Below, in pieces: positions 22,609-37,415 of a stretch of 64,000 nt of DNA. This DNA is from a virus. The stretch is taken from the UHGV virus genome UHGV-0236300; one strand, 5' to 3'. The notes beneath the pieces are model-generated. The model saw nothing but the letters and a program-made list of their open reading frames with translations, had not been told where the DNA came from and ran no database searches. The position numbers were made by a program, and so were the translations under genes. Position 1 is the first letter of the stretch, and every line of letters starts with the position of its first letter.

Positions 22609-22626
22609 TTTCTTAACTGAATTATC

Positions 22627-22652
22627 AAGGGGCTTAAAGGCCCCTTTCTTTT
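22627..22652 (+). terminator. rho-independent terminator
   Basis: Stem GGGGC/GCCCC with TAAA loop, then TTTCTTTTT. Confidence 0.6.
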
Positions 22653-23263
22653 TGTCTGCTCTTCTCCTACCATAAACGGCCCTACCTGGCAAGTGGAATA
22701 ATTGACTAGCCATCAATCCCACATACTGTACAAATATACATGGAAAATAACTATTGCATAATCTTTCATTGTGTGGTAGCAGGGCCATTTTTACCCGTTT
22801 TCTCTCCCAAAAGTGCACGTAATGCCGCTATTGCACAAATTTTAACCTGATGCACATCTCCAATATCTTGTCAACAACTAAAAATCTTTATAAGTCATAC
22901 ACTTACACAGCATCGAAAGCGTGTTCTACGCGAAAAATCGAGTATAACTATAGCCGCCAGATCTCAGAATTCACGTACGCACGCCATTCTATAGTCTGCA
23001 AAGTATTTATTCCAACCACAGAATAACGGAATAGTCAATACCTGCATAAAATAATTATTCGTGTAAACTGCATAACATAAATCAGCTCAGGTGTCAACAT
23101 TTTTCGTAAACAGTTCGAAATTGTCACGATAAGTTATTATACACAGAGAAATCTTTAGTCGTCTAATGTTTACTGTACATTACTATACTGACTGGAATCA
23201 TTAGATGACTAAGAGAAAGATAAGAAATAATTAATAATGTAATTGTTTTACCTGTAACAATAA

Positions 23264-23440
23264 GGCAACTATGCAAACGAATGGCATGGCGCGACGGAGT
23301 CGCGACATAATATAAAAGCAGTAACAATCACCCCCGTGATAGTTTTTCTGCAATCTATTATTCAGATCATAGTTGCCTTGTATTTAGTTAATCATGACAT
23401 AACAAGCAAGGCAACTATAGATCTTCTAATAGTTGCCCTG
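23264..23440. repeat. CATAGTTGCC direct and inverted repeats
   Basis: Motif at 23264 (rev), 23368 (fwd), 23410 (rev), 23429 (fwd); 23368-23420 is a 13-bp-arm imperfect palindrome. Confidence 0.5.
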
Positions 23441-23529
23441 CTTTTATATTATGTCATAGATTGTTATCTTGTTAATTGTTTTCATGCAAACGAATGTCAT
23501 GGCTTATCATCTCTGTGTAAACAATTTGG

Positions 23530-23585
23530 GCGTAAACTATTCAGATGAAAACTATTCAGGCGTAAACAGTCTATGCGTAAACAGT
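23530..23585. repeat. CGTAAAC(AG) motif cluster
   Basis: GCGTAAAC at 23530, 23560, 23575; also 23897 and 23105; the same core occurs in the early 5'UTR 22-mer. Confidence 0.5.
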
Positions 23586-23610
23586 GAGATATGGAATAGT
23601 AACAGCCGTT

Positions 23611-23682
23611 ATTGTGTCATATTGTGTCATTGTGTCAAAGGTAAAAGTGTCAAAAGTGACAATTTTGTCACATTGTGTCAGA
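23611..23682. repeat. TGTGTCA / TGACA iteron-like repeats
   Basis: ATTGTGTCAT x2, TGTGTCAAA, GTGTCAAAAGTGACAA, TTGTCACATTGTGTCAGAC. Confidence 0.5.
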
Positions 23683-24204
23683 CAAGTTTTTCTCCTCTTT
23701 GTCAAGTGCCGCATGAAAAATTTACAAACTGGTATGGTAGCATTTTTGCGGCCCTGTTTACATTCAGGAATGTATGTATAATCCTTGCTGTGTGGGCGTT
23801 TAGACGTCTGGACGGTCAGAAGTCAGCAGGTCAATATCTAATCTATTGGTTGCTAACTATATCCCACACAAATAGTAAGAAATATAATTGTTATGTGCGT
23901 AAACAGTAACTCATGTTATCAATCCCTGTATGTATCGCCAGTGGTGCGCATAATGGGTATTATGTTAAATTGCCCGTAATGATAACCATTCTCACAATGA
24001 TAGGTATTCTCATTCATCCCCACAAGATAGATTGCAAATGTTGTGCCACTGTGTGAACGGCCTCACCTATTAATTTGCCTCACTGCCTCGATATTTGAGA
24101 ATTATTATAAAAAATGAGAAGTATTCCCATTCCGTCCGCCTGGCAGCACTCCTGTAGGACAAGCACAACATCGGGGTATAACTGGACCTGTTCAGATATT
24201 TCTG

Positions 24205-24345
24205 GCTGACTCTTCAGGCCTGTGTGGGAAAAGCCAACCTCTCCGGCGGCGGGGAGGGGGGTCAATTAAAAAATTTACGTGGTGTATGAAGCGCTCTTCA
24301 GGCAAGGTGTGTATTATGGGATGAAACCCTCTTCAGGTGATGATA
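24205..24345. repeat. CTCTTCAGG repeats and G-rich repeats
   Basis: CTCTTCAGG at about 24211, 24296, 24330 (and 24739); CCGGCGGGGA(G/T)GGGG at 24244 and 24388. Confidence 0.4.
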
Positions 24346-25113
24346 TTTGTGGGGGGATATTTGCTGGAAAGCCAGATATGACGGGGCTCCCGGCGGGGAT
24401 GGGGTAGTACAGACAGGGAAAATGTGGGGATGTGGTGGGAGTAAATTGATCAAGTAGGTAGGATATGGAATATGTTACAAGTATGTTAAATATAGAGGTA
24501 GGATATTTGTGAGATTTGTGTGTAAAATCAAAGACTTAGGTGGTGTTGTGGTATTTTCTATAAATAATTCAAGTTTAATAGGTGATATTTGTCTCCATCC
24601 ACTTTGTGTGGTAAACAGCTCCTAATTGAATTGGTTTACAAGTGTATATAAAGTATACAAATTAAAGATATAAGAAACCCCCCTCCCCCTTCGGCTACCA
24701 TTCACCTTTTCCTCTGACTGGTACTTAAACACTTATTCAGACTCTTCAGGTTATCACCCCTATACTATATGGCAGTGACTGGTGTCCTCCGGCCCCTCTT
24801 TCGCCACCCGTCCGCTTCGCCATGCTAATGCCATAGCCAAAGGTTCGGTTGTTCACCCTGTTCACTCAGGTGTATCTCCATACCCCTTCAAACCGAAGAG
24901 AACAGAAAACCCGAATTACTCGGTAAAAGAAAAGAGAAGAACTTAATTTTATCAAGATAGGCAAGAATGTCAAGGGATGACTGCTCACTAAACAAGCAAA
25001 CAGTCATGTGTGGTAGGTAAGTAACTGGGTTGGTAGGAAATTTAGTTGGAAGATGTTATAGGTGCCTCCAGAACCTTAGCTGGGCAGCTAAACCTGCAAA
25101 GCAGACTTGTGTG

Positions 25114-25329
25114 TCAGTCCAAAGGTTCATCTACTACTTCACTGAAATCAATGTTCAGGGTCTCTTCCCAACCATCAATCTCAGCACCAGAGTAGAGATC
25201 TTTAGGGTCTACATCAAGGGCTTCCGCAACAGCATCTATATTTAACACTTCTGGCAGGTAAGATTCATCGAATTCAAGGTAAATCAGGCCACGAGTGTTG
25301 TCAGTCCCACCAAATATTTCTATTTTCAT
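25114..25329 (-). CDS. hypothetical acidic protein
   Basis: ATG preceded by AGAGGAG. Confidence 0.45.
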   Translation of the reverse strand: MKIEIFGGTDNTRGLIYLEFDESYLPEVLNIDAVAEALDVDPKDLYSGAEIDGWEETLNIDFSEVVDEPLD

Positions 25330-26133
25330 GAAATCTCCTCTGGAAATGAGAGTGTGAACAGGGTTTATACGTTCCAATACGCTGGAATTATGCACGTTTG
25401 CCTCTTCAGGCCATGCTTTAGCATGATAAACTTATGTGGGCTCGGTGCTTCATAGTCTCCCACCTCTGAACTCTTCGTGCTCGGGCATAATAGAGAACCA
25501 GATGGCTATGATATCTTCCCACGTTAGGTCATCAGCCTCAGGATCCACCTGGGACGGAGATAGAGAATCCTCAGAATTGAAGTTTTCCTCTATCACTCCT
25601 TCAGATGTCTCTGTAGATGCATGTGTGTTGGTCATGTTCCACCCGTGAGTATTCCGGCAACATGTTTAAAAAATAAGACTTTATCAACATATGGCCGGAA
25701 CGTGTCGATGCCATAAGCATATTCCTGCAACAGCCGCTATGGACGTAATGATCATCAGGATCACCACTAAAACCTCTGACAATGTTTTCATTGTGTATTC
25801 CATATTATCCAAACAATGTGTGGATACTATCACAGGGGCGGTAATGTGTCAACAGAAGCGCCGCGAGGGTTTGGTTAAAATCCGAGCGTATGGTGATTTG
25901 GGTCAAAACGGGCGTGCGTTCTCGCTACGCTCGAAATAGAGAGTTGTTTGTAGGATGACTTTAAACGCTCTGTAAGGAGATTAATTGTCTAAGGTATGGA
26001 ATCGTGCACCAGATAAAGAAAAGGACGCCACAGAGCGTCCTAGGTGCCTTAAATTTGATATTTTGCTATACCCATGAGGGCTTGTCTAGGTTGGAGTAAC
26101 TGAAGGGGGTCAAAAGGTGACTGTCAAAATCTT

Positions 26134-26364
26134 TCAAACTGTCCAAGTCTTTTCCTCGTCCTGACACCATCTGTGCCTGCATTTATTGTTGTAGTGCATG
26201 GAATGCATAGCGTTCTGCAACTTAATAGGTACAAGTGATTCAGGAGTAGATAGAATTGTTGGGTATGCCAGGACTATCTCGAACAATGGAAACACATCGA
26301 AACTGAAGTCTATTTCTGCTGAGGTTGCTGGCATATAGGAGTATTTAGCTGTCGTTGTAGACAT
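26134..26364 (-). CDS. hypothetical protein
   Basis: ATG after GAGGTGG; coupled to upstream gene. Confidence 0.4.
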   Translation of the reverse strand: MSTTTAKYSYMPATSAEIDFSFDVFPLFEIVLAYPTILSTPESLVPIKLQNAMHSMHYNNKCRHRWCQDEEKTWTV

Positions 26365-26372
26365 AATCCACC

Positions 26373-26699
26373 TCACACAGGCTTGATAATACCTTCACCG
26401 AATAACTCTTCATATTTAATCTTATCAGGATCCCACTCCTGGATAATTTCGAAGACAATATCCAGCCCAGGGATAATCACTTCTCCGGTATCAAGTCTGG
26501 CAAGAACAAAACCGGAAGGTTGAATGGTTTCCCAGTTGCGACGATTAGAATAGAGAACTTCGAAAATATCGCCAACCGCAATCTGCTGATCAAGGTGCTC
26601 AAGATTCTCTTTCATATAAACGCAGCGTATTTTCCGTGCAGGCCACAGGCCCCCTGCATCACGTTCATTTAGCTCTTTTACAGTAATCGGCATTAGCAT
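26373..26699 (-). CDS. hypothetical protein
   Basis: 108-aa ORF, RBS GGAGAAG. Confidence 0.5.
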   Translation of the reverse strand: MLMPITVKELNERDAGGLWPARKIRCVYMKENLEHLDQQIAVGDIFEVLYSNRRNWETIQPSGFVLARLDTGEVIIPGLDIVFEIIQEWDPDKIKYEELFGEGIIKPV

Positions 26700-26752
26700 T
26701 TCTGATCTTCTCCATAGATAGTAAAAAGAGGGGCCAAGACCCCTCCTCGTTG

Positions 26753-27058
26753 TTATTCTGCAGAGCGTTTGAACAGAATGTCTGCTTCAGACATGTGCTC
26801 AACCTCTTCTTCGATTTTAGCTCGACGTTTTTCAGCTTCGTAGCGGATATCGAATTCGGTAGCCACCAATGACTTGATAAACTTAGGAGAATACAGGTGA
26901 TCCTGTTTCTCGACAAGAATAATATCCTTGATAGCGTCTTTCAGATCTTTAATCTGAAGCTGAAGTTCCACCAGCTCTTCAATTGTTTTACGGAGGCGAT
27001 CACGCTCTGCAGTGTCAGAAGGCAGAGAGGTGAACAGTTCAACTTTAGATTTAGCCAT
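26753..27058 (-). CDS. hypothetical coiled-coil protein
   Basis: 101-aa ORF, RBS AAGGAGA. Confidence 0.5.
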   Translation of the reverse strand: MAKSKVELFTSLPSDTAERDRLRKTIEELVELQLQIKDLKDAIKDIILVEKQDHLYSPKFIKSLVATEFDIRYEAEKRRAKIEEEVEHMSEADILFKRSAE

Positions 27059-27086
27059 AGTAAGAGTCTCCTTATATTGTTTTAAA

Positions 27087-27338
27087 TTAACGTTCTACAA
27101 AAATACCGTTCAGTTCAATAACCAGGAATTTCTGGTCTTCACTATCGTCACGTGCCAGCACCTCACAGACGTAACGGTCATCTCCGTCATCATCACAGTC
27201 AAACACAAGGCTGAGGACTTTATCATGATAAACCTTCGCCACTACCGCCTCGTAAGTGTTGCCGATTGTGAATCCAAGATAATCCCCGATGCATTTGACA
27301 ACAACATGGTCGCCAGCATTTAAGTCAATCTTCGTCAT
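27087..27338 (-). CDS. hypothetical protein
   Basis: ATG after AAGGAGC. Confidence 0.45.
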   Translation of the reverse strand: MTKIDLNAGDHVVVKCIGDYLGFTIGNTYEAVVAKVYHDKVLSLVFDCDDDGDDRYVCEVLARDDSEDQKFLVIELNGIFVER

Positions 27339-27493
27339 TACTGTGCTCCTTGGGTGATAATACGGTATGTAAAACTCTAACCAGAGATGTGAATAACGCC
27401 CCAAAACACACCGATAGCGCTAAAACAGATAAGGCCATCATTAAAGCTTCAGTAAAATCAGTCATTCCTCACCTCTTGTTAGTCACTATACTA

Positions 27494-27757
27494 TTATTTA
27501 TCTTTGCCGTCAAGAACTTTTTTAAATCTCTCAGGAATATCTCCTGTTCTTAGATAGTTCATGACCTCACAAGGTTCCCACTTAAACTTCTTGCACAGCA
27601 GAGCGGCTGAGATTGTCTCATTGCGAAAAGAAAGGATATCAATATCCCACTCTGAGAACCCTAATTTCCGAAGAGTGGCTATAGAAATCCTCACAGCAAC
27701 CCAACAAGAGAGGCACGCAACAAACGCCACTGCCACAACCCACACCAAGATGTTCAT
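27494..27757 (-). CDS. hypothetical membrane protein
   Basis: ATG after AAGGGG; N-terminal hydrophobic helix. Confidence 0.4.
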   Translation of the reverse strand: MNILVWVVAVAFVACLSCWVAVRISIATLRKLGFSEWDIDILSFRNETISAALLCKKFKWEPCEVMNYLRTGDIPERFKKVLDGKDK

Positions 27758-27845
27758 ACAGCCCCTTAATGAAATACAAGACATAGTGCCAAGGTCACTA
27801 TTCAGCAAATAATTAACAGTGCCGTTGCAACCTTGGCAAGATTTA

Positions 27846-28133
27846 TCATAGCGTCTCTAAAATTTCATACCCTTCGGGTCGGAAAACAAGCCACTCAGGT
27901 GCTCCATTTGGTCGATACGCTTTATACAGAACAACCTGATCTCGGCACATACACATTGCTACATAGTTTTCATCCACACCTGCAGCCTGCATTGCATCTT
28001 CTTCTCCGGCAACCGCTTTGCTTACAACTTCCTTGGTAGGCAGGTGGGCGATCAGCTCGTCACCATCGTTAATTCCAAAATGGCTGAGTTCTCCATTGGT
28101 GTCTTTAATCTTGATCTTAACCAAATCTTTCAT
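27846..28133 (-). CDS. hypothetical small acidic protein
   Basis: RBS GGGGGAAG; coupled array. Confidence 0.5.
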   Translation of the reverse strand: MKDLVKIKIKDTNGELSHFGINDGDELIAHLPTKEVVSKAVAGEEDAMQAAGVDENYVAMCMCRDQVVLYKAYRPNGAPEWLVFRPEGYEILETL

Positions 28134-28462
28134 TAGTCTTCCCCCAAGTTCAAAGGTCCTAAGATTTCATATGCCAGATTAGAAGTTACCAGGGGATCTT
28201 CTGCATCTTTAGTATTATACCACCCGTGAATAACCAGAGTCCCACTTTTCTTCATGTCTAACTGGAACTGTTCTGCCGTTTCCTCATCCACCTCCAAGAT
28301 CTCCATGAGGTATTTGATGTTAGGAAGGTATGCAGCTGTTACAGTCCCCTCTACCCGGCCTTCAGGCCAACCTACATCCGGATGACAAGTAGGGACCAGA
28401 GAGGTCAGCTTGATAGTGTATGCTTTTTCTGCACGAGCCTTCAGTAACGGATCAATCTTCAT
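28133..28462 (-). CDS. hypothetical protein
   Basis: RBS GAGGAGGAAG; ATGA-coupled. Confidence 0.5.
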   Translation of the reverse strand: MKIDPLLKARAEKAYTIKLTSLVPTCHPDVGWPEGRVEGTVTAAYLPNIKYLMEILEVDEETAEQFQLDMKKSGTLVIHGWYNTKDAEDPLVTSNLAYEILGPLNLGED

Positions 28463-28812
28463 TATTCTTCCTCCTCTTCGGTGCCTGCTTCCAGTAGTAA
28501 GTTAAGAACATCTTCAGCAGAAGGTTCGTAGAACTCTTGGCCTTCGTTGTCGATGATGCGATAGTCATCACCACGAATAATCAGAGGATCGTCATCAAAA
28601 CCTTCAAGACCTTTAACAACGACAACACGGTCGATTGCCATCATTGTAAGAACTTTATCGACATCTTCCTCTGCTACACCATACTGCAGCAGAATGTCTT
28701 TGGTAGGAGGGACAGCATCCACCACAACACCGTTACTAAAACCTTCCGGAAGTTTAGCTAAAATATCTTCCGGAACCACATTCATATCAAAACCTGTGAT
28801 CTCTACTTTCAT
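28462..28812 (-). CDS. hypothetical small acidic protein (MKV... / acidic-tail family)
   Basis: RBS GAGGTG; C-terminus TEEEEE. Confidence 0.5.
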   Translation of the reverse strand: MKVEITGFDMNVVPEDILAKLPEGFSNGVVVDAVPPTKDILLQYGVAEEDVDKVLTMMAIDRVVVVKGLEGFDDDPLIIRGDDYRIIDNEGQEFYEPSAEDVLNLLLEAGTEEEEE

Positions 28813-29073
28813 TTACAGCACCTCTTCGTCAACTACTTCATAAAAATGGCTAGGGATTGCAATAGCGTTCTCACCTTCACCTACAAACACAGTCCCGTCA
28901 AGGATCAACATCATAAGAATGTCTGTAATATCCTCCTCCGGAACGTTGCCAAAACCTTTAATCAACTTATATGTCGGGACATTCGCCTCTAGGATGTCGC
29001 CATCTTTAGAACGGAAATCCACACCTTCCTGAATCTCTGCCATTTCAAGGTTTTTCAATCTAATCTTCATCAA
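28813..29073 (-). CDS. hypothetical small acidic protein (family member)
   Basis: RBS CAGGAGA; C-terminus YEVVDEEVL. Confidence 0.5.
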   Translation of the reverse strand: MMKIRLKNLEMAEIQEGVDFRSKDGDILEANVPTYKLIKGFGNVPEEDITDILMMLILDGTVFVGEGENAIAIPSHFYEVVDEEVL

Positions 29074-29102
29074 TCAGTCTCCTGTCTTGTTAAGATGAAG
29101 GT

Positions 29103-29131
29103 ATTATTGCACACAGGGTTGGTGTTGTCAA
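29103..29131 (-). promoter_or_regulatory. sigma70-like promoter (candidate)
   Basis: Minus-strand TTGACA (29131-29126), 17-nt spacer, AATAAT. Confidence 0.35.
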
Positions 29132-29149
29132 CACCTGTGTGGCATAAAA

Positions 29150-29545
29150 TTACTGAAACAGTGCAGATAAATTACCTTCTGGTGGGAACTTATCTGCCAG
29201 GAATGGGGTTAGAACAGTGGCCTTCTGAAGATCTGGGGTCCACTCGTTGTTCAGAACATCCCAGTAATACGCAATGTTGCTATGTGGGTGCCGCATTACG
29301 AACTTTTTCCCTTCGTAGTCAGTTGAAACCTCTACAGAAGAAATAACAACAGAATCTTCAAGGGTTTCTTCATAGAAAGATCCACCCTCAAATTTCCAAC
29401 GAGATGCAAGAGCTCCTGCCTTGAACGCTGCAGATAACGGACTGTCTGCAAGAACATACATTTCTTGCACTCTGTCACTGCGATCTTTGCTTCTTACGTT
29501 GTATACAGTATCCGAGCTATACTCAACACGGTATAGACTTACCAT
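29150..29545 (-). CDS. hypothetical protein, paralog of 31353-31751
   Basis: RBS GAGGAGG; shared HP.S...YW.....WTP motif. Confidence 0.5.
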   Translation of the reverse strand: MVSLYRVEYSSDTVYNVRSKDRSDRVQEMYVLADSPLSAAFKAGALASRWKFEGGSFYEETLEDSVVISSVEVSTDYEGKKFVMRHPHSNIAYYWDVLNNEWTPDLQKATVLTPFLADKFPPEGNLSALFQ

Positions 29546-29877
29546 TACCGAGCCTCCTCAATAACTTCCACATCTGAACCCACCACAAATGCAAAAGGGC
29601 AGGTTTCATGAAAGATATCCGGATCTCCACCAAGCTTGCTAACTATCTCTCCACCACTAATAAACACAAGCTCACCAATATTCATCAGATTGCTAAAATA
29701 GTAGCCATAATGATTGAAGAATGCAGCTGGGTCAGGTAGACTGGTGGCCTCAAGCTCTACATTGCTTGAGATCACTTTCTTATCATACCCTCTCGCCTTT
29801 TGAGATGCAAGATCTGCAGAGTCTTCAGGAGACCGGAGATGCACAGGAATTGTTTCACCAATAAAGCGTACTTTCAT
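29545..29877 (-). CDS. hypothetical small acidic protein
   Basis: ATG 29877 just after upstream stop; C-terminus VEVIEEAR. Confidence 0.45.
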   Translation of the reverse strand: MKVRFIGETIPVHLRSPEDSADLASQKARGYDKKVISSNVELEATSLPDPAAFFNHYGYYFSNLMNIGELVFISGGEIVSKLGGDPDIFHETCPFAFVVGSDVEVIEEAR

Positions 29878-29881
29878 ATTC

Positions 29882-30145
29882 TTACCCCACAACCATAGCT
29901 TCAAAAGGTGTCATAAACGAATAAACAGCATCATCATCTGCTTCAGGGAATGCCCCCAAAGACTTTATGTCTGATCCCTTGACAAATACAAGGTTTTGAT
30001 CAAAAGCTTCTTGTGGATCAATCCGATACATATCTCGTAGGATACCACTTACCTCCTCATCAAGAGGCGAGTATGCTGTGCACGTTTTTCCAATCAAGCT
30101 TTGAGAATCAGGGTATCCACCTGAAGTTTTAAAATAAACAATCAT
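29882..30145 (-). CDS. hypothetical protein (GSD-I/L-xx-GA motif family)
   Basis: RBS GAGGTGA; KGSDIKSLGAFPE. Confidence 0.5.
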   Translation of the reverse strand: MIVYFKTSGGYPDSQSLIGKTCTAYSPLDEEVSGILRDMYRIDPQEAFDQNLVFVKGSDIKSLGAFPEADDDAVYSFMTPFEAMVVG

Positions 30146-30237
30146 ATAGTATCACCTCTGGTAAGAGATGGGGATTCCTTTCCCACAAATAATTACAAAC
30201 CTTTCTTGTCGAGGAAAGTATGCTAACCCAAGTAGGA

Positions 30238-30507
30238 TTACTCTTCTACAACCTCATACACATCCGGAGTTACAATCAACTCTTCTCCGTTACCTGGTGC
30301 AACAAACACTACCAAACCTTCCGGTGTGTGCTTTTTAGCCATCTCGATGACATCTTCTCGCAGAGCTGGCTCCATCAGATCAAAACCTTCACCCAGAGCA
30401 TCACGAACCACCTTCATGTAGTCAACTGGTTGTGCTTCAACGATCATGCCTTCAACCAGTCCACAGTTTTTGTCTGCCAGCTCAGTTTGGAATAATTTAA
30501 TTTTCAT
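30238..30507 (-). CDS. hypothetical small acidic protein (family member)
   Basis: RBS GAGGAGA; C-terminus YEVVEE. Confidence 0.5.
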   Translation of the reverse strand: MKIKLFQTELADKNCGLVEGMIVEAQPVDYMKVVRDALGEGFDLMEPALREDVIEMAKKHTPEGLVVFVAPGNGEELIVTPDVYEVVEE

Positions 30508-30533
30508 TTAGAGGTCTCCTCAATTATTTGATA

Positions 30534-30635
30534 TTAATAGCCGTAACCTAACACATTAACTACAACTGCGATTGCAAACATAATTTCAAAGCATGCAATC
30601 TCTACATTTGGGACTAATTTCTTAATCATGCCCAT
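30534..30635 (-). CDS. small hydrophobic peptide (33 aa)
   Basis: RBS GAGGTG then ATG; MGMIKKLVPNVEIACFEIMFAIAVVVNVLGYGY. Confidence 0.3.
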   Translation of the reverse strand: MGMIKKLVPNVEIACFEIMFAIAVVVNVLGYGY

Positions 30636-30650
30636 TGTAGCACCTCAATC

Positions 30651-30962
30651 TCAAAAGTCAATCTTTACTTTACCTTTTCCCTTACCTTTCTTTCCACCGC
30701 ATTTAGCCAACTGGCGTGCTGCAACATCCACCATACGGTCAGTTGCCTCGTAAGCATCGCTACCTTTAGCTTTGGCGATAACTTCTTTCCCAGAATTGTC
30801 AAAAATGAAAGCCATAACTTCCTGGTGATCATTTTCAACTTTTACACTCACACGTGCATAGTTGGCAGAGGGGTGCAAACGCTCCAGCTTGGACATTTTG
30901 TGGGAAATGAAAGACACCATACCTTCAGTGATCTCTACGTTGCCAGTGATTTCAATCTGCAT
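30651..30962 (-). CDS. hpf: ribosome hibernation-promoting factor homolog (HPF/RaiA, S30AE family)
   Basis: MQIEITGNVEITEG...KLE...VKVE...GKEVIAKAKGSDAYEATDRMVDVAARQLAK matches E. coli HPF along its length (recalled from memory); RBS AAAGGAGC. Confidence 0.75.
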   Translation of the reverse strand: MQIEITGNVEITEGMVSFISHKMSKLERLHPSANYARVSVKVENDHQEVMAFIFDNSGKEVIAKAKGSDAYEATDRMVDVAARQLAKCGGKKGKGKGKVKIDF

Positions 30963-31009
30963 AACGTGCTCCTTTTAAAGAAGAGGGAACCAAACCCTCT
31001 TTGAAAATA

Positions 31010-31038
31010 ATGATACTAAAGATCAAATGTTGTGTCAA
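31010..31038 (-). promoter_or_regulatory. sigma70-like promoter upstream of hpf
   Basis: Minus-strand TTGACA, 17-nt spacer, TATCAT; hairpin AGAGGG/CCCTCT in the 5'UTR. Confidence 0.45.
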
Positions 31039-31044
31039 CAGTTT

Positions 31045-31335
31045 TTACAGCTTGTCGTCGATAGTTTTTAAAATATCCACTGCAAGATCTGCCATTTTAC
31101 GAACATACTCTGCAAACTCAACAGGATCCTTGATCAATGAGTTCACAGGGTCATACCCTAAAGCGTTTAAAATGGCTACAGCATCCACAACCTTCTCATC
31201 ATTTGCGAAGATCTCACCGTCAAACTTGTAAGTCCATTTTGAGTCAATCTTGGCATGGCAGGATTGGTCCATGCTTATTACACCATCTTTTTTAAACGAT
31301 TCGGTGTTATCAGTATCCAAAACTAAATCCATCAT
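31045..31335 (-). CDS. hypothetical protein
   Basis: 96-aa ORF in coupled array. Confidence 0.45.
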   Translation of the reverse strand: MMDLVLDTDNTESFKKDGVISMDQSCHAKIDSKWTYKFDGEIFANDEKVVDAVAILNALGYDPVNSLIKDPVEFAEYVRKMADLAVDILKTIDDKL

Positions 31336-31352
31336 GTAAGTACCCCACTATT

Positions 31353-31751
31353 TCAGCTTATCTTTTCTTCAACAACCCCGTAGCTCGGGGCAGAGTCAAG
31401 AGCTTTCTGGTTTAAAAGTGGTGTAGCAGAATCTGCAAACGGTGTCCAGGTTTTTGTTCTGGCATTCCAGTAATGCTTTACTCTGGAATCTGGATGCACT
31501 ATAACAAAAACTTTTTCACTTGTCAACACATTAATTTCTTCTACACCCTTGCTGATAATCTCTCCGTCATAGCCACCAGTCTGGTATCCTTCGTACCAGG
31601 TTCTTGCATAGGCATAGCCAGCCTGCCAGCATGCAGCCTCCTCCGAGGTGGAGACTACGTAGAAGTCTTTCTCAAATTCGGGGATACGCCCTTGCTTTAC
31701 GCTCCAAGCTCCGCGAATTTTCATTGTAACTTTGAACAGTTTATTTTTCAC
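31353..31751 (-). CDS. hypothetical protein, paralog of 29150-29545
   Basis: GTG start after GGGGAA; HPDSRVKHYWNARTKTWTP motif. Confidence 0.5.
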   Translation of the reverse strand: MKNKLFKVTMKIRGAWSVKQGRIPEFEKDFYVVSTSEEAACWQAGYAYARTWYEGYQTGGYDGEIISKGVEEINVLTSEKVFVIVHPDSRVKHYWNARTKTWTPFADSATPLLNQKALDSAPSYGVVEEKIS

Positions 31752-31763
31752 AACAGTTCCCCA

Positions 31764-32018
31764 TCACAGCTCTAAAATATCTGCATCTGACCCTGTCCCA
31801 AAGGCATAATACGAGTCCTCTCCGAAATAATATTCCGGGGCACCAGCCGCGATCAGGTCTGATCCCAAGATGAACACCACATTGTGGCCTACATGGCTGT
31901 GATTTTGCCGCACAGGATCGTCCCACGGCAACCCTTCGAAGTATACAGCAGGTACTACCTTTCCTTTCAGGAAGGATTGTCCCAAGTAGACGTTAGAGTC
32001 AAGAATTTTAACCTTCAT
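31764..32018 (-). CDS. hypothetical protein (MKVK / DLIAAGA family)
   Basis: RBS GGAGGA; MKVKILDS... SDLIAAGAPE. Confidence 0.5.
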   Translation of the reverse strand: MKVKILDSNVYLGQSFLKGKVVPAVYFEGLPWDDPVRQNHSHVGHNVVFILGSDLIAAGAPEYYFGEDSYYAFGTGSDADILEL

Positions 32019-32232
32019 GATCGTCCTCCACTATCTCCACATCCTCTCCTAGGGCAAAGTTGTAGGTCCACTGACTGTCAAAGCATTCCTGGGATGCACC
32101 AGCGGCAATAAGATCTGCACCTTTTATTTTTAAAAGGTCAGGATAATCTTCGTTAGGGATAGCGGTAAACACTTTCCCCACTAAGGGCTCCTGACCAATA
32201 TAGAAGCTTGAATCTAAAACTTTAACTTTCAT
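32008..32232 (-). CDS. hypothetical protein (MKVK / DLIAAGA family)
   Basis: RBS GGAGAC; MKVKVLDS... ADLIAAGASQ. Confidence 0.5.
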   Translation of the reverse strand: MKVKVLDSSFYIGQEPLVGKVFTAIPNEDYPDLLKIKGADLIAAGASQECFDSQWTYNFALGEDVEIVEDDHEG

Positions 32233-32516
32233 CAGCGGTCTCCATCGGGCGGTTGTGGAACGTAAACACTGTTACGAATCTCGTCAGCAGTATAGTAACA
32301 AGTTTTCCCCTCTCTGTCTCTGGCAGCAATGTATTCAGCTATACCAATAAGTGCCATAGCCTTGGTTGCGTATCTCTTAAGCTCGTTAGCTCCCCAGCAA
32401 AATCTCTGCCAAAACGGTATGAAACCGAATAGGTACACTTTCTGTTTCACTATCCAATAAGTTCCTTTACAGATCACTTTAAACTCTGCAGCACTATTGC
32501 TAACACCATTGCTCAT
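32232..32516 (-). CDS. hypothetical protein
   Basis: RBS AAGGAGAAG; ATGA-coupled. Confidence 0.5.
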   Translation of the reverse strand: MSNGVSNSAAEFKVICKGTYWIVKQKVYLFGFIPFWQRFCWGANELKRYATKAMALIGIAEYIAARDREGKTCYYTADEIRNSVYVPQPPDGDR

Positions 32517-32528
32517 TATCTTCTCCTT

Positions 32529-32813
32529 TTATTTTTCTGGATTTGGCAGATATTGCACATTGGCAGGAGGAACACCGGATAGCTCCCAAACAACCATAGT
32601 GCTGTACCCTGGCACACTTCTAACATTTAAAAGAGTAGGAGCACCAACACATTTAAACTTCCTTTTCCCAAATCCGTTCTCCATCATAACCCAGTATCCG
32701 GTATCCTGATCACCGGGAATTTGTGTTCCATCATCGTCCACCCAGCGGACGGTCCATTTCGATACAGCAACAGCCTGGTATTTAAACTTTTTAAACCACT
32801 CGAACAGTTTCAT
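32529..32813 (-). CDS. hypothetical protein
   Basis: RBS GAGGCTG. Confidence 0.5.
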   Translation of the reverse strand: MKLFEWFKKFKYQAVAVSKWTVRWVDDDGTQIPGDQDTGYWVMMENGFGKRKFKCVGAPTLLNVRSVPGYSTMVVWELSGVPPANVQYLPNPEK

Positions 32814-32816
32814 AAT

Positions 32817-32906
32817 TCAGCCTCGCATAGCCATAATAACTATAAACAGACAAAGAATGAATCCGAATGCCACGCCACCCATAAACGTTAATATTGATGC
32901 GACCAT
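32817..32906 (-). CDS. small hydrophobic peptide (29 aa)
   Basis: RBS GAGGCTG; MVASILTFMGGVAFGFILCLFIVIMAMRG. Confidence 0.3.
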   Translation of the reverse strand: MVASILTFMGGVAFGFILCLFIVIMAMRG

Positions 32907-32908
32907 AA

Positions 32909-33094
32909 TCAATCAGCCTCGTTTGGCAGCTCTTCCATTTTGACATACCGGAAAGTGTTGCCGTAATAGTTGATCCATGACATCAGCTCACTTTCTTGCT
33001 CTTCCTCTGGGATGGACTCTCGAACGCTGACAAGTTTTAAGAAAACCCAATCACAATCCACCCCCATCCTACCAGACAGACAATAGTGCTTCAT
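32909..33094 (-). CDS. hypothetical protein
   Basis: RBS GGGAGGG. Confidence 0.45.
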   Translation of the reverse strand: MKHYCLSGRMGVDCDWVFLKLVSVRESIPEEEQESELMSWINYYGNTFRYVKMEELPNEAD

Positions 33095-33112
33095 AAAACC
33101 CTCCCGCCTGGT

Positions 33113-33307
33113 TTAGAATACTGCTTCTTCCATTGCACCTGAGAGCAACAAAGAGGTAATCTGGCTAACATTCATCTCAGACTCCACTTCCTCCCCTTTG
33201 AAAGGTTCGCGGCAGAATAGGACTGTTTCAGGATTTTTACTTCGAACAATATAATACAAATCATTCAAAGTGTTGTAGTAATAAGTGTTAAAACGTAAGT
33301 TTTTCAT
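33113..33307 (-). CDS. hypothetical protein
   Basis: RBS AAAGGGGA. Confidence 0.45.
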   Translation of the reverse strand: MKNLRFNTYYYNTLNDLYYIVRSKNPETVLFCREPFKGEEVESEMNVSQITSLLLSGAMEEAVF

Positions 33308-33591
33308 TTTCTAGTCCCCTTTTTAGATTTTTGTGCAGAAACGCTTTCTGCAATACGAGACAGGCGTTCTTCTGAAGCTTTACCTACTCCAGGTTTCTTG
33401 AGCGGGCTATCTTTATGACCGCAATCCAATTGGATGCTAGATACATCCCCAACCTTGTAAGTCAATTCTAGCAAAAGGTTGTCGTCCTTGTCAAATGTTT
33501 TTACGATAAATTTTTTATCGTCCTCCTTAACTTCATATCTAGTACCTGCAGTGTACAGCATGGTGCCATCAGCGTAGGATATCCAGATCAT
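33304..33591 (-). CDS. hypothetical protein
   Basis: RBS GAAGGAGG; ATGA-coupled. Confidence 0.5.
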   Translation of the reverse strand: MIWISYADGTMLYTAGTRYEVKEDDKKFIVKTFDKDDNLLLELTYKVGDVSSIQLDCGHKDSPLKKPGVGKASEERLSRIAESVSAQKSKKGTRK

Positions 33592-33908
33592 TGCACCTCC
33601 TTCTGCTGCAACAGCATCAACTCTTTGTTGGAAATCTTTACTGCTGTCTTTATTGTCCCATCTTCACGGAACCACGACCAGAATTCTACAGTGTCACCAC
33701 TATCAAGCAAGGCATGACCATGGTAAAAATCTTTGTCCTTAGACAGTTTCTCATCTATATCTGCATCGACACATTCGTGATCCATAGCATTCTGCCTGAA
33801 TGCATCGGTTATGCCAATGCACGCCTTACTCTCAAGGCTGGTATACCCAATATCTTTTAATTCAGTTCCCAAGTCCAGTATCCTACAAAAGCTACAACAG
33901 CCACCCAC
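33588..33908 (-). CDS. hypothetical protein (start uncertain)
   Basis: ORF beginning with GTG; overlaps a better-initiated 25-aa hydrophobic ORF (33857-33934) in another frame. Confidence 0.35.
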   Translation of the reverse strand: MGGCCSFCRILDLGTELKDIGYTSLESKACIGITDAFRQNAMDHECVDADIDEKLSKDKDFYHGHALLDSGDTVEFWSWFREDGTIKTAVKISNKELMLLQQKEVQ

Positions 33909-33994
33909 ATTAATATCGATTTAATCTTTGACATTCTCTCTACCTCTTTCTTAGTTTATTTAATTATGGCACATCCTTTGTGCCATAATGCACA

Positions 33995-34456
33995 TTACTT
34001 AAACAACAGTTCAAAATAGTGCAAAATTAACAGAAGTTGAATTACGCCTAGCACAACGGCGAGTATGTTGATCTTAGAATCAAAAAACTTCTTAACTTTT
34101 ACCCTAAAAGGCTCCTTAATGTCCTTTACGATCCTATTTATAGATGATTTCATATCCCTGATTACCATCCTAAACATTAGGGACGGATCTTCCTTCTCTG
34201 TAACGGAATCGAAAACATACTCTCTTCGGTCATAAGGACCTCCAGATCTGCGTATTAACCTCTCCACAGATACCTCGTACGACACACCTGTAACGTAATC
34301 ATCTATGACAAGTAGTGACGGATCTTTATCGTCCAAAGGTATTAAAGTTATCTTTCCAGATTTTGTTAAAATTTCTCCTTTTTCAAGCAGTGTGTACCAA
34401 TGCTCTCTACCAAGGTTGTTGAGGCACGTTTTTACATATTTAACAAACATCGTCAC
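33995..34456 (-). CDS. hypothetical protein with C-terminal transmembrane segment
   Basis: RBS GAGGGGTG; C-terminal ILAVVLGVIQLLLILHYF. Confidence 0.5.
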   Translation of the reverse strand: MTMFVKYVKTCLNNLGREHWYTLLEKGEILTKSGKITLIPLDDKDPSLLVIDDYVTGVSYEVSVERLIRRSGGPYDRREYVFDSVTEKEDPSLMFRMVIRDMKSSINRIVKDIKEPFRVKVKKFFDSKINILAVVLGVIQLLLILHYFELLFK

Positions 34457-34638
34457 CCCTCATCGCACGTCTGATATAGCCATTCTATGAAATCTTGATA
34501 CCACTCTCCCTCTGAGCGCTCCGTAGGCCAATAATCTTCCCCCTCTCTTGCATTAAAATCTGAGTATTCAACTTTCCACTCCTTTACCAGCTCGTGGAGA
34601 AGGTTTTCAGCCTGTTCTAAGGATTTATTTTTTGTCAT
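34453..34638 (-). CDS. hypothetical protein
   Basis: ATG after AAAAGGGGA; TAATG coupling with upstream small ORF. Confidence 0.45.
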   Translation of the reverse strand: MTKNKSLEQAENLLHELVKEWKVEYSDFNAREGEDYWPTERSEGEWYQDFIEWLYQTCDEG

Positions 34639-34744
34639 TACTGTCCCCTTTTTCAAGATAATTATACATCAGCGCCGCACCACCCAAAATGGCTACCAGC
34701 AGTAATACCCCAGAGAGCATTTCAATAAACATGGCTTGAAACAT
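34625..34744 (-). CDS. small hydrophobic peptide (39 aa)
   Basis: RBS AGAGGGGG; MFQAMFIEMLSGVLLLVAILGGAALMYNYLEKGDSNDKK. Confidence 0.3.
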   Translation of the reverse strand: MFQAMFIEMLSGVLLLVAILGGAALMYNYLEKGDSNDKK

Positions 34745-34875
34745 TAGAAGGCCCCCTCTAATTTCACGCACCATTTTAAATACATATTCTTTTCCCATAA
34801 AGGTGCCCGGCTAAGATCTGTGTAGAACGCAATCTCTTTAAGAACAGTATAAACAGTTTTAGGTGCGGTATCCAT
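34744..34875 (-). CDS. small protein (43 aa)
   Basis: RBS AAGGAGAG; TAATG overlap with next ORF. Confidence 0.3.
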   Translation of the reverse strand: MDTAPKTVYTVLKEIAFYTDLSRAPLWEKNMYLKWCVKLEGAF

Positions 34876-35095
34876 CCCTACTCTCCTTTTTCTCCTTACG
34901 GGTATTCTTGTAGTAATCAACCAGACACATTATTACGATGAAGACAACCACAGGCCAAAAAGGTGCAGCAGTGATGATGGTGATAAAATCATCAAACTTC
35001 ACCCTTCGTGTAGACACGATGCATATACCTGTCAAGATTACTGCTGTTATAACAGCTACTACTAGGTAACCTATTAGCACAGCATTTATACTCAT
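34859..35095 (-). CDS. small membrane protein with two TM helices and charged C-terminus (holin-like topology)
   Basis: RBS GAAGGAGG; two hydrophobic segments then KNTRKEKKESRDGYRT. Confidence 0.5.
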   Translation of the reverse strand: MSINAVLIGYLVVAVITAVILTGICIVSTRRVKFDDFITIITAAPFWPVVVFIVIMCLVDYYKNTRKEKKESRDGYRT

Positions 35096-35113
35096 TGGCT
35101 CCTCCTTCGTAGG

Positions 35114-35650
35114 TTAAATTGTGCACTTCAGGTGGTTGTCGATGGTGTCAAGAAAATTATCCCGTTCTTTCTCAGAGTTTTCACGGATGTAGCTGAAAAA
35201 CATATCTAGAATAACCTTATTGATATATTCCAACTCCTCTGTGTTCAAGTACTTAGCAGGATCTACAATGACATCCCAAGTATCATACAGACCGCACTCA
35301 TGATACCCCCAACGCCGCTCAATTGTCAAACTGATCGGCAAATCTTTACCGTCACAAACAACCCTCCATCTACAGATACTGGTATCTGGGCGTACCTGTG
35401 CACGGTATACCTGTACAAAATCCAATTTGAATTTGAGGTACTCGTCATACAATTTAAGCACAAAGCTCTCGATTTGTGGAGACACTTTTGCAGCAAACTG
35501 TGCGTATTTGTACTTGCACTGGATGATCTTTCTGCGTTTTGCAGTTAAATTTTTTGCAGCCAGTTGTTCTTCAGTGTACCTCCACCTACGATCAACAAAC
35601 GCAACAGGGTCTTTGTCCCCATAGAGGTCTTCCCAGTTAATCAGAAGCAT
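35114..35650 (-). CDS. hypothetical protein
   Basis: ATG after GGAGGAG. Confidence 0.5.
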   Translation of the reverse strand: MLLINWEDLYGDKDPVAFVDRRWRYTEEQLAAKNLTAKRRKIIQCKYKYAQFAAKVSPQIESFVLKLYDEYLKFKLDFVQVYRAQVRPDTSICRWRVVCDGKDLPISLTIERRWGYHECGLYDTWDVIVDPAKYLNTEELEYINKVILDMFFSYIRENSEKERDNFLDTIDNHLKCTI

Positions 35651-35655
35651 ACCTG

Positions 35656-35889
35656 TCACTCCTCCACAACTTCAAGGCCTTTACCGCCTCGCTCTGGCAG
35701 ATTGCCTAAAGATAGGTAATACGTATAATCAGGAGAGATCCTACCAGACTCTGCACCTGCAGCTAGTAAATATTTTCCCTTAACCATGACAACATTATCG
35801 TTTGCAGATAGCCGTTTTGCTTCCACAATTTTACCAACGCAGTCAACCAAGGAAGGGTACCCTAAATCTGTAAGAAATTTAACTTTCAT
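35656..35889 (-). CDS. hypothetical protein (MKVK / LAAGA family)
   Basis: RBS GTAGGAGG; MKVKFLTD... KYLLAAGAES ... LEVVEE. Confidence 0.5.
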   Translation of the reverse strand: MKVKFLTDLGYPSLVDCVGKIVEAKRLSANDNVVMVKGKYLLAAGAESGRISPDYTYYLSLGNLPERGGKGLEVVEE

Positions 35890-35928
35890 GCTACCTCCTA
35901 CTTCTACCGTCCCTGGTAAGATAAATTA

Positions 35929-36327
35929 TTACTGAACAGAGCGCGGAGCTGGGAAGGATAACTCTTCTAAAGAGAATATTTCATTTCCCACAATCCATGT
36001 TGCCGGATCATCCGGGTTGACTGGATAGATAATCATCACCTCATCAGTGTTACATACCCGCTTTTTACCTGTGGAGTTATCAGCAACTAGCATGCGAGGC
36101 TCTTCAGAGATACACAGGTATCCGCCACGTCCAACTGTCCCTTCTACAGGGTCCTGACCTTTTATTACGATGAATATCTTCTCTCCTGAGGTGATATTAC
36201 CTTGCACACTTACCGTTTGACCAACCTTGGATGTACCAATCTTAGTGACTTCGAACATTACATCACGGATAACTGTTGCATAGTTACCAGAGACTTTCTT
36301 ACCTTCTTCAGTAATCTCAATCTTCAT
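35929..36327 (-). CDS. hypothetical protein
   Basis: RBS TAAGGAGC. Confidence 0.5.
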   Translation of the reverse strand: MKIEITEEGKKVSGNYATVIRDVMFEVTKIGTSKVGQTVSVQGNITSGEKIFIVIKGQDPVEGTVGRGGYLCISEEPRMLVADNSTGKKRVCNTDEVMIIYPVNPDDPATWIVGNEIFSLEELSFPAPRSVQ

Positions 36328-36563
36328 AATCTAGGCTCCTTAAATGAATCTATATAGTCAATTAAATCCCAAGCATCCCTATGACCTGTCAGAGGGTATA
36401 CTTCTCCAAGAGGGATCATAGCAATAAGCCTATCAAAAACCCAGTCTGGACGCAACATTTTATGATGATATTCCCACTCACCTTCCACAGATTTTTTCTG
36501 AGTGATCAGAATCTCTGTGTAGTGTTTTGCCTGTCTTGAGTAAATTGAAAATGACTTATACAT
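36324..36563 (-). CDS. hypothetical protein
   Basis: RBS AGAGGGGGGG; ATGA-coupled. Confidence 0.5.
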   Translation of the reverse strand: MYKSFSIYSRQAKHYTEILITQKKSVEGEWEYHHKMLRPDWVFDRLIAMIPLGEVYPLTGHRDAWDLIDYIDSFKEPRL

Positions 36564-36600
36564 AGATGACCCCCCCTCTTGTTGAAAACAAAATACACTA

Positions 36601-36885
36601 CTACCAGGTCACTGTCAAGTAGGCAACTGTGTTATTTTTCTCCGGGGAGATGCCAACAACATCCACCCGCAGACCTCCTGCCCTCAAATCCCCAACGATG
36701 TGTGGGAAGTAGTCTGAGAGGTGTGATGGAAGATTTATCGAAAATCCGCATCCCAGAAAGCCTGCTAACGCCTTATTTTGTATCTCCCCTACAATCGCAT
36801 CATAAATGGAGTTAAGCTCGTCAGGGAGAGTTACAGGACGTTTTAGCGCTAACTGGTGCAACTTGTCCTTAGCACTCATTTTCAT
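36601..36885 (-). CDS. hypothetical protein
   Basis: ATG overlapping stop of upstream MTase gene. Confidence 0.45.
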   Translation of the reverse strand: MKMSAKDKLHQLALKRPVTLPDELNSIYDAIVGEIQNKALAGFLGCGFSINLPSHLSDYFPHIVGDLRAGGLRVDVVGISPEKNNTVAYLTVTW

Positions 36886-37415
36886 TTCAAGTCTGCCTCC
36901 GGAGGTGCCAACCACATAAATGGTGGTAGGTCTAAACGGTTCTTCTTGTCCCACACAAAATATGCATATGCTTGCCCGTCAGTTCTGCCATTAGATTGGA
37001 ATGATGGACGCTTAGATATTGTGATCACAGTGGTAGGGGCATTATCAAGCCACCATTCAAATCTGGCCTTGCTTTCCAGAAAATTAAGACGCAAAAGCAT
37101 AATAACTACGTCAGCATCTTTCAACGCCTTGTCCACAAACTCACGAGCCAGGCTGTACGGCGGGTTGGTGATAATACAGTCAACATGGTTGTATTCCGTA
37201 TTCAGATAGTCAACACCTTCTTGGATTTCTCCCCATGCAGATCCTAACGGCATACGGGAGTAGAATACACCTGAGGCGCTATTCCTGCAAGGCTCCAAAT
37301 AGGTCCAATCTTCTGGGAACGGAATGAGGTTATACAACCCTTCTGCACACCACTCTGGTGTCACATATTCATCATAGGCGTTACGTTGTTCGTCAGGTTT
37401 TCTAGCACAAGTCAT
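36882..37415 (-). CDS. DNA methyltransferase (NPPY-type, N6-adenine or N4-cytosine)
   Basis: Catalytic motif IV IITNPPYS; RBS TGGAGAT. Confidence 0.65.
   Translation of the reverse strand: MTCARKPDEQRNAYDEYVTPEWCAEGLYNLIPFPEDWTYLEPCRNSASGVFYSRMPLGSAWGEIQEGVDYLNTEYNHVDCIITNPPYSLAREFVDKALKDADVVIMLLRLNFLESKARFEWWLDNAPTTVITISKRPSFQSNGRTDGQAYAYFVWDKKNRLDLPPFMWLAPPEADLK

Follow-up and report, generated by a model that had tools for sequence, protein, structure and literature searches.

The closest described analogue of the locus reported here is the host-takeover module of phage SPO1, a set of 26 small early genes whose products are believed to act by binding host machinery and redirecting it, and for which early timing and host shutoff have been shown experimentally (PMC6873191). 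Our locus is an array of about 40 small genes on the minus strand of the UHGV virus genome UHGV-0236300, at positions 25114 to 36563 of the 64,000-nucleotide stretch that was analyzed (the window). Like the SPO1 module, it is a dense block of small genes, mostly of unknown function, in a large lytic myovirus, with host-type promoters and strong ribosome-binding sites. However, the two have no sequence homology, the array is known here from sequence and models whereas timing and shutoff in SPO1 are experimental, and neither paralogue families nor a duplicated multigene cassette is described for SPO1 (PMC6873191). A further point of comparison is the accessory (moron) stretch between Q and the lysis genes of lambdoid prophages, which also holds small unknown open reading frames (ORFs), including a homologue of one array family (family A, below). 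Unlike the array, this stretch belongs to a temperate phage and a late transcript, and it carries family A as a single copy.

The array has a direct counterpart in coliphage rV5, where it corresponds to ORFs 125 to 163 and to the distal end of transcription unit 82-163 (PMC3606486). Over its 11.45 kb the region shares 97.9% identity with Escherichia phage vB_EcoM-ECP32 and 91 to 98% nucleotide identity with more than 110 further Vequintavirus (rV5-like) GenBank genomes, with gene order kept; in 116 records, one single aligned place spans 80% or more of it. The window itself comes from a Vequintavirus, i.e., an rV5-like Escherichia coli myovirus. Locus, gene order, annotated promoters, and terminator are the same in rV5 and its orthologues as in the window, and the two show no biological difference; the window has three 1-nt homopolymer indels that break ORFs intact elsewhere. 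The array lies downstream of nucleotide-metabolism, PhoH, ClpP, and Dam-methylase genes, and relatives carry 34 to 41 annotated coding sequences (CDS) over this stretch, nearly all "hypothetical protein," plus a ribosome hibernation factor. The locus is therefore known, long annotated in databases, and ordinary for a large lytic phage. The text of the rV5 paper mentions neither paralogy nor folds, with no match to "paralog" or "duplicat" (PMC3606486). What is new here is a modest increment: the family structure, a duplicated cassette, a shared fold, and several annotation corrections. We consider it reasonably probable that the array is an accessory multioperon block, partly built by segmental and tandem duplication of SH3-like barrel genes, whose products bind host or phage proteins during takeover.

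Paralogue families and a recurring gene order

Families were defined by all-against-all BLASTP, by PHROGs, and by leave-one-out hhalign with profiles from seven genomes. As controls for hhalign we used 253 gene pairs outside families A to C; the family D pair reached 69% probability and all other pairs stayed at or below 17%. Four families, of which D is tentative, account for 13 genes, about a third of the array (Table 1).

Family A comprises five genes with a GxDLIAAGA motif. Members gave a full-length profile match and share the G-x-D-L-I-x-A-G-A segment and invariant Tyr11, Lys20, and Tyr57. PHROG 5009, a phage protein family of unknown function, matched three of the genes end to end (E values of 1e-31 to 2e-38) and 29882-30145 more weakly, and leave-one-out comparison gave 92 to 99% probability for the four full-length members. 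PHROGs keeps 29882-30145 (phrog_13920) and 29545-29877 (phrog_13661) as separate families, whereas the profile tests used here join both to family A. A diverse family A hidden Markov model (HMM), built after an exhaustive search, found exactly five genes in the window, all inside the array. Family B comprises four genes, with leave-one-out probabilities of 69 to 91% and E values of 1e-6 to 5e-5 over 68 to 83 columns. Candidates that failed were 28133-28462 as a fifth member of family B (57% with a possibly circular profile but 1.7% on leave-one-out) and the genes at 25114, 27087, and 35929 as members of the barrel families, which lacked profile support; their MKIE or MTKI starts are insufficient alone.

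An original prediction, made from the letters of the window and a list of its ORFs, had proposed repeated duplication of small acidic proteins at this locus, and the duplication is wider than it noted. The profile searches that it had named as a possible refutation, should members fall into unrelated families, instead group the members together. Its four genes with a GSDLIAAGA-like motif (31764, 32008, 35656, and 29882) are confirmed as family A by PHROG 5009 and leave-one-out comparison. It had also counted at least six acidic proteins beginning MK[VI]x and ending in an EVVEE-like sequence, and we find at least eight with this pattern (25114, 28462, 28813, 29545, 30238, 31764, 32008, and 35656); as a group, the proteins marked by this motif pair correspond to families A and B combined. 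Net charge is -6 to -22 and the isoelectric point (pI) 4.1 to 4.7 in eight of the nine A and B members, the exception being 35656-35889 (net charge 0, pI 6.2).

Read along the direction of transcription, the order of families is ..AD...........AACD..BAACBB.B........... (dots are genes outside the families). The A-A-C triplet thus occurs twice, which is unexpected by chance (P = 8.5e-5 in 200,000 label permutations) and therefore indicates segmental duplication. Duplication of a multigene segment together with tandem expansion of B is the simplest reading of the gene order. At the sequence level the positional correspondence between the triplets holds for two of the three pairs, 31764/29545 and 31353/29150, the third pair being 32008/29882.

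Table 1. Positions in the window of the array, its family members, other named genes and peptides, and transcription signals
Feature	Position	Strand	Evidence or remark
Whole array, ~40 small genes	25114-36563	-	= rV5 ORFs 125-163; rV5 record DQ832317
Family A, 74 amino acids (aa), pI 4.1, minimal SH3-like barrel (predicted)	32008-32232	-	Modelled with AlphaFold2
Family A, 84 aa, ~13-aa insert in β2-β3 loop	31764-32018	-	BLASTP, PHROG 5009, hhalign
Family A, 77 aa, closest to lambdoid-prophage homologue (51% identity)	35656-35889	-	PHROG 5009, hhalign
Family A, 87 aa, divergent, loop insert	29882-30145	-	PHROG 5009 E 1.6e-4; leave-one-out 92.5%; broad HMM E 1.7e-15
Family A, 110 aa, large insert, C-terminal 40 aa match A	29545-29877	-	HMM E 9e-6; broader profile 95%; leave-one-out 75%
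Family B, 89 aa, SH3-like barrel (predicted), helical insert at residues 30-60	30238-30507	-	
Family B, 85 aa	28813-29070	-	BLASTP; leave-one-out 88%
Family B, 116 aa, net charge -22, acidic C-terminal extension	28462-28812	-	BLASTP; leave-one-out 69%
Family B, 95 aa	27846-28133	-	Leave-one-out 91%, E 1e-6
Family C, 131 aa	29150-29545	-	BLASTP E 3e-11; PHROG 7379; hhalign 94.8%
Family C, 132 aa	31353-31751	-	BLASTP, PHROGs, hhalign 94.8%
Tentative family D, 96 aa, resembles C-terminal ~70 aa of 35114-35650	31045-31335	-	hhalign 34-69%, E 4e-5 to 4e-4
178-aa protein, C-terminal domain tentative D, "putative glycosidase" in BASEL records	35114-35650	-	
hpf, short ribosome hibernation promoting factor, Lys/Gly-rich tail	30651-30962	-	PF02482 E 1.7e-12, 48.4 bits vs cutoff 23.7
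101-aa protein, phrog_639 "transcriptional regulator" E 1e-21	26753-27058	-	pN/pS 0.01; weak GapR-like Pfam match below cutoff
153-aa protein, hydrophobic C terminus	33995-34456	-	phrog_7821 "virion structural protein"; orthologue of rV5 gp133
Hydrophobic peptide, 33 aa (rV5 ORF145)	30534-30635	-	Intact in six relatives
Hydrophobic peptide, 31 aa, grand average of hydropathy 2.2	32817-32912	-	Intact in relatives
Hydrophobic peptide, 46 aa	27325-27465	-	Intact in relatives
σ70-like promoter, 11/12	31038-31010	-	In 82-nt gap before hpf; = rV5 P144
σ70-like promoter, 11/12, extended -10	29131-29103	-	In 79-nt gap before family B run; = rV5 P150
σ70-like promoter, 10/12	36590-36618	-	Just upstream of the array's first gene
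Intrinsic terminator, GAGGGGTCTTGGCCCCTC then TTTTT	26745-26728	-	After 26753-27058; annotated in rV5
Intrinsic terminator, 8-bp stem then T-run	26041-26022	-	On coding strand

Predicted fold, selection, and distribution of the families

AlphaFold2 models built with the family alignments reached a predicted local distance difference test (pLDDT) score of 92.1 for 32008-32232 (family A) and 92.8 for 30238-30507 (family B). The order of the five strands is the same in both models, with the MKVK start forming strand 1 and the EVVEE end strand 5, and both matched the same PDB entries among SH3, KOW, and PsaE structures. The five-strand topology common to them is that of the SH3-like small β-barrel fold, which includes SH3, KOW, PsaE, and the integrase C-terminal domain, and families A and B are predicted on these models to be SH3-like barrels. 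The helical insert of family B sits between strands 2 and 3. At the same β2-β3 position, alignment and model secondary structure place the inserts that distinguish the family A paralogues, which measure about 0, 13, 17, and 45 residues. We infer that A and B may be one scaffold with one variable loop. Their common ancestry also appears likely from the sequences, but profile comparison (2.4% probability with narrow profiles and 36% with broad ones, over the N-terminal hairpin) was not accepted as proof of it.

For estimates of selection we defined 42 candidate minus-strand ORFs, took their orthologues from six other Vequintavirus genomes, and calculated the ratio of nonsynonymous to synonymous differences (pN/pS). 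Pooled values were 0.114 for family A, 0.139 for B, 0.046 for C, 0.237 for D, and 0.147 for the other array genes, compared to 0.037 for a pooled flanking set (ORF 36601-36885, Dam methylase, and ClpP) and 0.032 for hpf. Single genes ranged from 0.03 to 0.06 in family C and from 0.04 to 0.24 in family B. The ratios of A and B are thus 3 to 4 times those of the flanking housekeeping genes (~0.04) but remain well under 1. Among GenBank phages, neither 32008-32232 (family A, searched by tblastn) nor family B was found outside the genus; within it, 118 records match, nearly all of them 95 to 99% identical in amino acid sequence, and every A, B, and C paralogue is kept as a stable orthologue in all 118 Vequintavirus genomes. 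Between paralogues, identity is 25 to 47%, and the differences are mainly inserts in one loop. The divergence within the families is old and lies between paralogues, with each copy under purifying selection. This does not fit the "diversifying" module of the original prediction, given pN/pS values near 0.11, 0.14, and 0.05 for A, B, and C and copies that are present throughout the genus, nearly all at 95 to 99% identity. Ancient duplications followed by purifying selection on each copy suggest subfunctionalized copies rather than an active arms-race locus.

Allelic turnover in the array falls in genes outside families A to C, at 32232-33307 and 35114-35650. For instance, 32232-32516 and 32529-32813 have only 70 to 78% nucleotide identity to five of the six compared genomes, yet 99% to ECP32, and 33113-33307 has 68 to 75% to three of the six. 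At 35114-35650, alleles with ~51% amino acid identity occur in FV3, O157 typing phage 4, and HMD-6 (FV3-type). These two stretches are mosaic hot spots.

Of families A to C, only A has relatives beyond the genus. Among 5.8 billion proteins, families A, B, and C gave 39, 44, and 6 clusters, respectively, and the exhaustive HMM search widened A to ~80 clusters at 50% identity; no homologues of B or C were found outside the genus. Some relatives of A repeat the domain two or three times in tandem, and one is fused to DUF3310, the only fusion found that might serve as a functional clue and itself uncharacterized; a tblastn search of phages with a triple-domain protein (P0084) gave no match. A 75-aa homologue, 51% identical to 35656-35889, lies between antiterminator Q and holin in lambdoid E. 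coli prophages, in a run of ~10 small unknown ORFs of 60 to 121 aa. As for transfer of a module between prophage and array, family A is the only array gene common to both. Another homologue occurs in Vibrio phage CHOED. A Foldseek search of viral models also found similar small uncharacterized proteins in other large phages, among them the T4-like RB49 and Merlin. None of the family A or SH3-like relatives found outside the genus is characterized. From its occurrence in the prophage Q-holin stretch, in CHOED, and in tandem-domain and DUF3310-fused forms, family A appears to be a mobile accessory gene.

Coding content, expression signals, and individual genes

The boundaries of the array and its ~40 small minus-strand genes, as originally predicted, agree with our count of 40 to 42 ORFs, and the statement that nearly every gene encodes fewer than 135 aa is correct for all but 33995-34456 and 35114-35650. 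All 29 ORFs of 60 aa or more that could be scored were intact in relatives and have pN/pS values of 0.00 to 0.38, which makes them genuine protein-coding genes. Two ORFs, 26134-26376 and 33588-33908, were left out of this scoring because of 1-nt indels, and coding support is weak or nil for the very short ORFs at 25365, 25632, and 34744. Compared to all six Vequintavirus genomes, the window carries single-base indels in T (or C) homopolymer runs at 26149, 33865, and 34627 (also 34757). These break a 300-nt CDS at ~26066-26365, a 348-nt CDS at 33588-33934, and the region 34625-34920, which are intact elsewhere, and are probably sequencing or assembly errors in the isolate. Of the hydrophobic peptides of 25 to 45 aa that the original prediction placed between the genes, those at 30534, 32817, and 27325 stand (Table 1). 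The 25-aa "peptide" at 33857-33934 does not; it is the N terminus of a 115-aa membrane protein gene split by a homopolymer indel.

Translational coupling, proposed for the array as a whole, holds within suboperons: the gap is 5 nt or less at 20 of 39 junctions, mostly -4 (ATGA) or -1 (TAATG/TGATG), and a Shine-Dalgarno (SD)-like site precedes ~31 genes. A single coupled operon was ruled out because σ70-like promoters and two intrinsic terminators lie inside the array, which also has six intergenic gaps of 53 to 300 nt. At eight coupled junctions, the GAG or GGA (Glu or Gly) codons of the C-terminal residues double as the SD site of the next gene. This SD role is a second explanation for part of the C-terminal acidity. 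An Rfam scan over 21.5 to 37 kb gave no match.

The original prediction that no array gene except hpf has an assignable function was nearly right. The gene at 30651-30962 is solidly identified from its sequence as hpf, the only curated function in the array, with further support from TIGR00741 (46.0 against a cutoff of 40.9) and from E. coli HPF structures (PDB 2rql, E value of 5e-12), and it was the sole match above cutoff in Pfam, NCBIfam, and PDB sequence searches of ~30 array proteins. The statement falls short for the phrog_639 match at 26753-27058 and the gp133 virion orthologue at 33995-34456. Two database labels were rejected. The "sigma 54 modulation factor" or HPF label of 30238-30507, carried in ECP32, nimi, inoa, A6-1, ECP2303, SophiaRose, and others, has no Pfam match at an E value of 0.05 or less and no S30AE/HPF domain behind it, and the model of this protein is an SH3-like barrel. 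The label is a propagated misannotation that was probably copied from the neighboring true hpf. The glycosidase label of 35114-35650 found no match in Pfam, NCBIfam, or PDB.

The latter gene probably connects the array with a host defense system. In phage Bas51, "the glycosidase gene" tolerates a premature stop (R87*), and this mutation eliminates defense by Retron-Asa1 (PMC12548924). The paper gives no locus tag, but because Arg87 is present in the 178-aa protein, the Bas51 gene is the probable orthologue of 35114-35650. Judged by this probable orthologue, the array includes a gene that the phage can do without and that engages a host defense system (PMC12548924). Escape of the R87* mutant from Retron-Asa1 means that the gene product is sensed by the defense; it does not show that the product blocks it. 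The Dam methylase of Bas51 methylates GATC, triggers Retron-Asa1 and Retron-Squ1, and is toxic to E. coli when produced on its own (PMC12548924). Its orthologue in the window is a Dam-type N6-adenine methyltransferase at 36882-37415, just upstream of the array.

Several further observations concern the relatives and the flank of the array. Some Vequintavirus genomes (JEP1, PMBT16, Phage 203/206, and bov phages) have an HNH homing endonuclease inserted in the array, which the window lacks. Eighteen GenBank MG0656xx "Campylobacter phage" records (e.g., H10, H11, and H20; host, Campylobacter jejuni) are 91 to 92% identical across the region and look like mislabeled or contaminating coliphage genomes. 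Next to the array, at the meeting of two convergent transcription units, ~2.5 kb (~22609-25113), where GC content drops to 0.38, contain no annotated or convincing ORF and are probably the "non-coding" box of the rV5 map. This stretch has iteron-like direct repeats, namely, CGTAAAC-containing 22-mers at 23516-23582 and four copies of ATTGTGTCA at 23611-23680, as well as several inverted repeats, and it has no Rfam match. A strong σ70-like site lies at 24973-24946 (11/12, extended -10), with a small hairpin and T-run after it at 24923-24911. The stretch might be an origin or a packaging site or might encode a small RNA.

Candidate roles of the array

Transcription of the array is probably driven by several host-type σ70 promoters inside and upstream of it and meets two intrinsic terminators near its end, with translation coupled through overlapping stop and start codons within each suboperon. 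The A-A-C cassette, two predicted SH3-like barrel genes and a 131-aa gene, was copied as a block and B expanded in tandem, and the barrels differ mainly by inserts of 0 to ~45 residues in the β2-β3 loop, helical in B. In a takeover block of the kind proposed above, the acidic barrels would most likely be protein-binding modulators, each with a different host or phage partner. They would work together with hpf, which would silence ribosomes, and with a small putative regulator and several membrane peptides. A host-interaction role, one of the two that the original prediction had suggested, is plausible for small, acidic, predicted SH3-like proteins encoded behind σ70-type promoters next to hpf. 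Overall, that prediction stands as a description of the locus and in part as an interpretation.

A number of points weigh against this reading. No partner, toxicity, or phenotype is on record for any A, B, or C member. The broad-profile match between A and B covers only the first 29 residues, the N-terminal hairpin (P = 4e-4, 36% probability). Promoter-like sites are not enriched in the region (34 compared to 30.5 in shuffled sequence), and the promoter evidence has weight only in its positional agreement with the gaps and the rV5 annotation. The literature searched contained no transcriptome or expression timing data for an rV5-like phage, and "early" timing of the array would follow from promoter consensus and gene order only. 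The family A homologue of lambdoid prophages lies in a late (pR′) transcript, and timing is therefore not fixed for the family. Finally, gp133 of rV5 is a prominent virion protein by mass spectrometry (PMC3606486), which means that not every array gene is a takeover factor.

Phage accessory regions collect anti-restriction, anti-CBASS (cyclic oligonucleotide-based antiphage signaling system), and anti-retron proteins, and the A, B, and C paralogues might likewise inhibit distinct bacterial immune systems, each copy tuned to another target. We regard this role, the other one suggested by the original prediction, as unlikely. In its favor, the proteins are small and acidic, family A sits in accessory or moron hot spots of lambdoid prophages, pN/pS is 3 to 4 times that of the housekeeping neighbors, alleles of 35114-35650 differ as widely as 51% identity, and the neighborhood interacts with retrons, with Dam and the "glycosidase" as triggers (PMC12548924). 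However, the retron evidence is for sensing of an array product and not for inhibition, and the genes are core to the genus and 95 to 99% conserved, whereas known anti-defense loci vary by presence or absence. Searches of Pfam, PHROGs, NCBIfam, and PDB found no homology to a characterized anti-defense protein, and the literature search found nothing specific on Vequintavirus anti-defense genes or phage hpf. Direct action on transcription or translation, for example, by barrels serving as NusG-KOW-like adaptors with hpf and the phrog_639 regulator, has in its favor the embedding of both of those genes in the array. It seems improbable, since the strong acidity of all but 35656-35889 argues against direct RNA or DNA binding and no KOW sequence motif was matched in Pfam.

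Two other explanations are given very little weight. That the small proteins, like gp133, are packaged or aid assembly draws on the presence of gp133, the orthologue of 33995-34456, in virions and on its phrog_7821 match; yet gp133 is the sole array product named among virion proteins in the excerpted part of that paper (PMC3606486), the array stands apart from the structural modules on the replication and metabolism transcription unit, and family A lies outside structural modules in prophages too. It is just as improbable that the genes are dispensable ORFan "filler," held by linkage and coupling constraints without individual functions. Such filler would be consistent with the lack of B and C homologues outside the genus and with the premature stop tolerated in one array gene (PMC12548924), but not with purifying selection on almost every ORF, including the B and C genes, or with retention of all copies in 118 genomes.

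A more far-reaching reading, which we consider unlikely, is that A-A-C encodes a functional three-protein complex of two barrels and the 131-aa C protein that was duplicated as a unit and retargeted through the β2-β3 loop inserts. If this is true, the MKVK...EVVEE scaffold would be a general, unrecognized phage platform for evolving host-protein binders, common to rV5-like phages, some T4-like phages, lambdoid prophages, and Vibrio phages.

Vequintaviruses see wide use in therapy and biocontrol and belong to the BASEL model collection, yet about 11 kb of their genome has been a black box. The present analysis corrects the propagated misannotations "sigma 54 modulation factor" and "glycosidase" and by itself reveals no new mechanism. 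In this black box, 13 genes collapse to four families, nine of the genes having one predicted SH3-like scaffold with a single variable loop. This family structure shrinks the experimental problem: most of the region could be sampled by studying a few representatives and making one or two block deletions.

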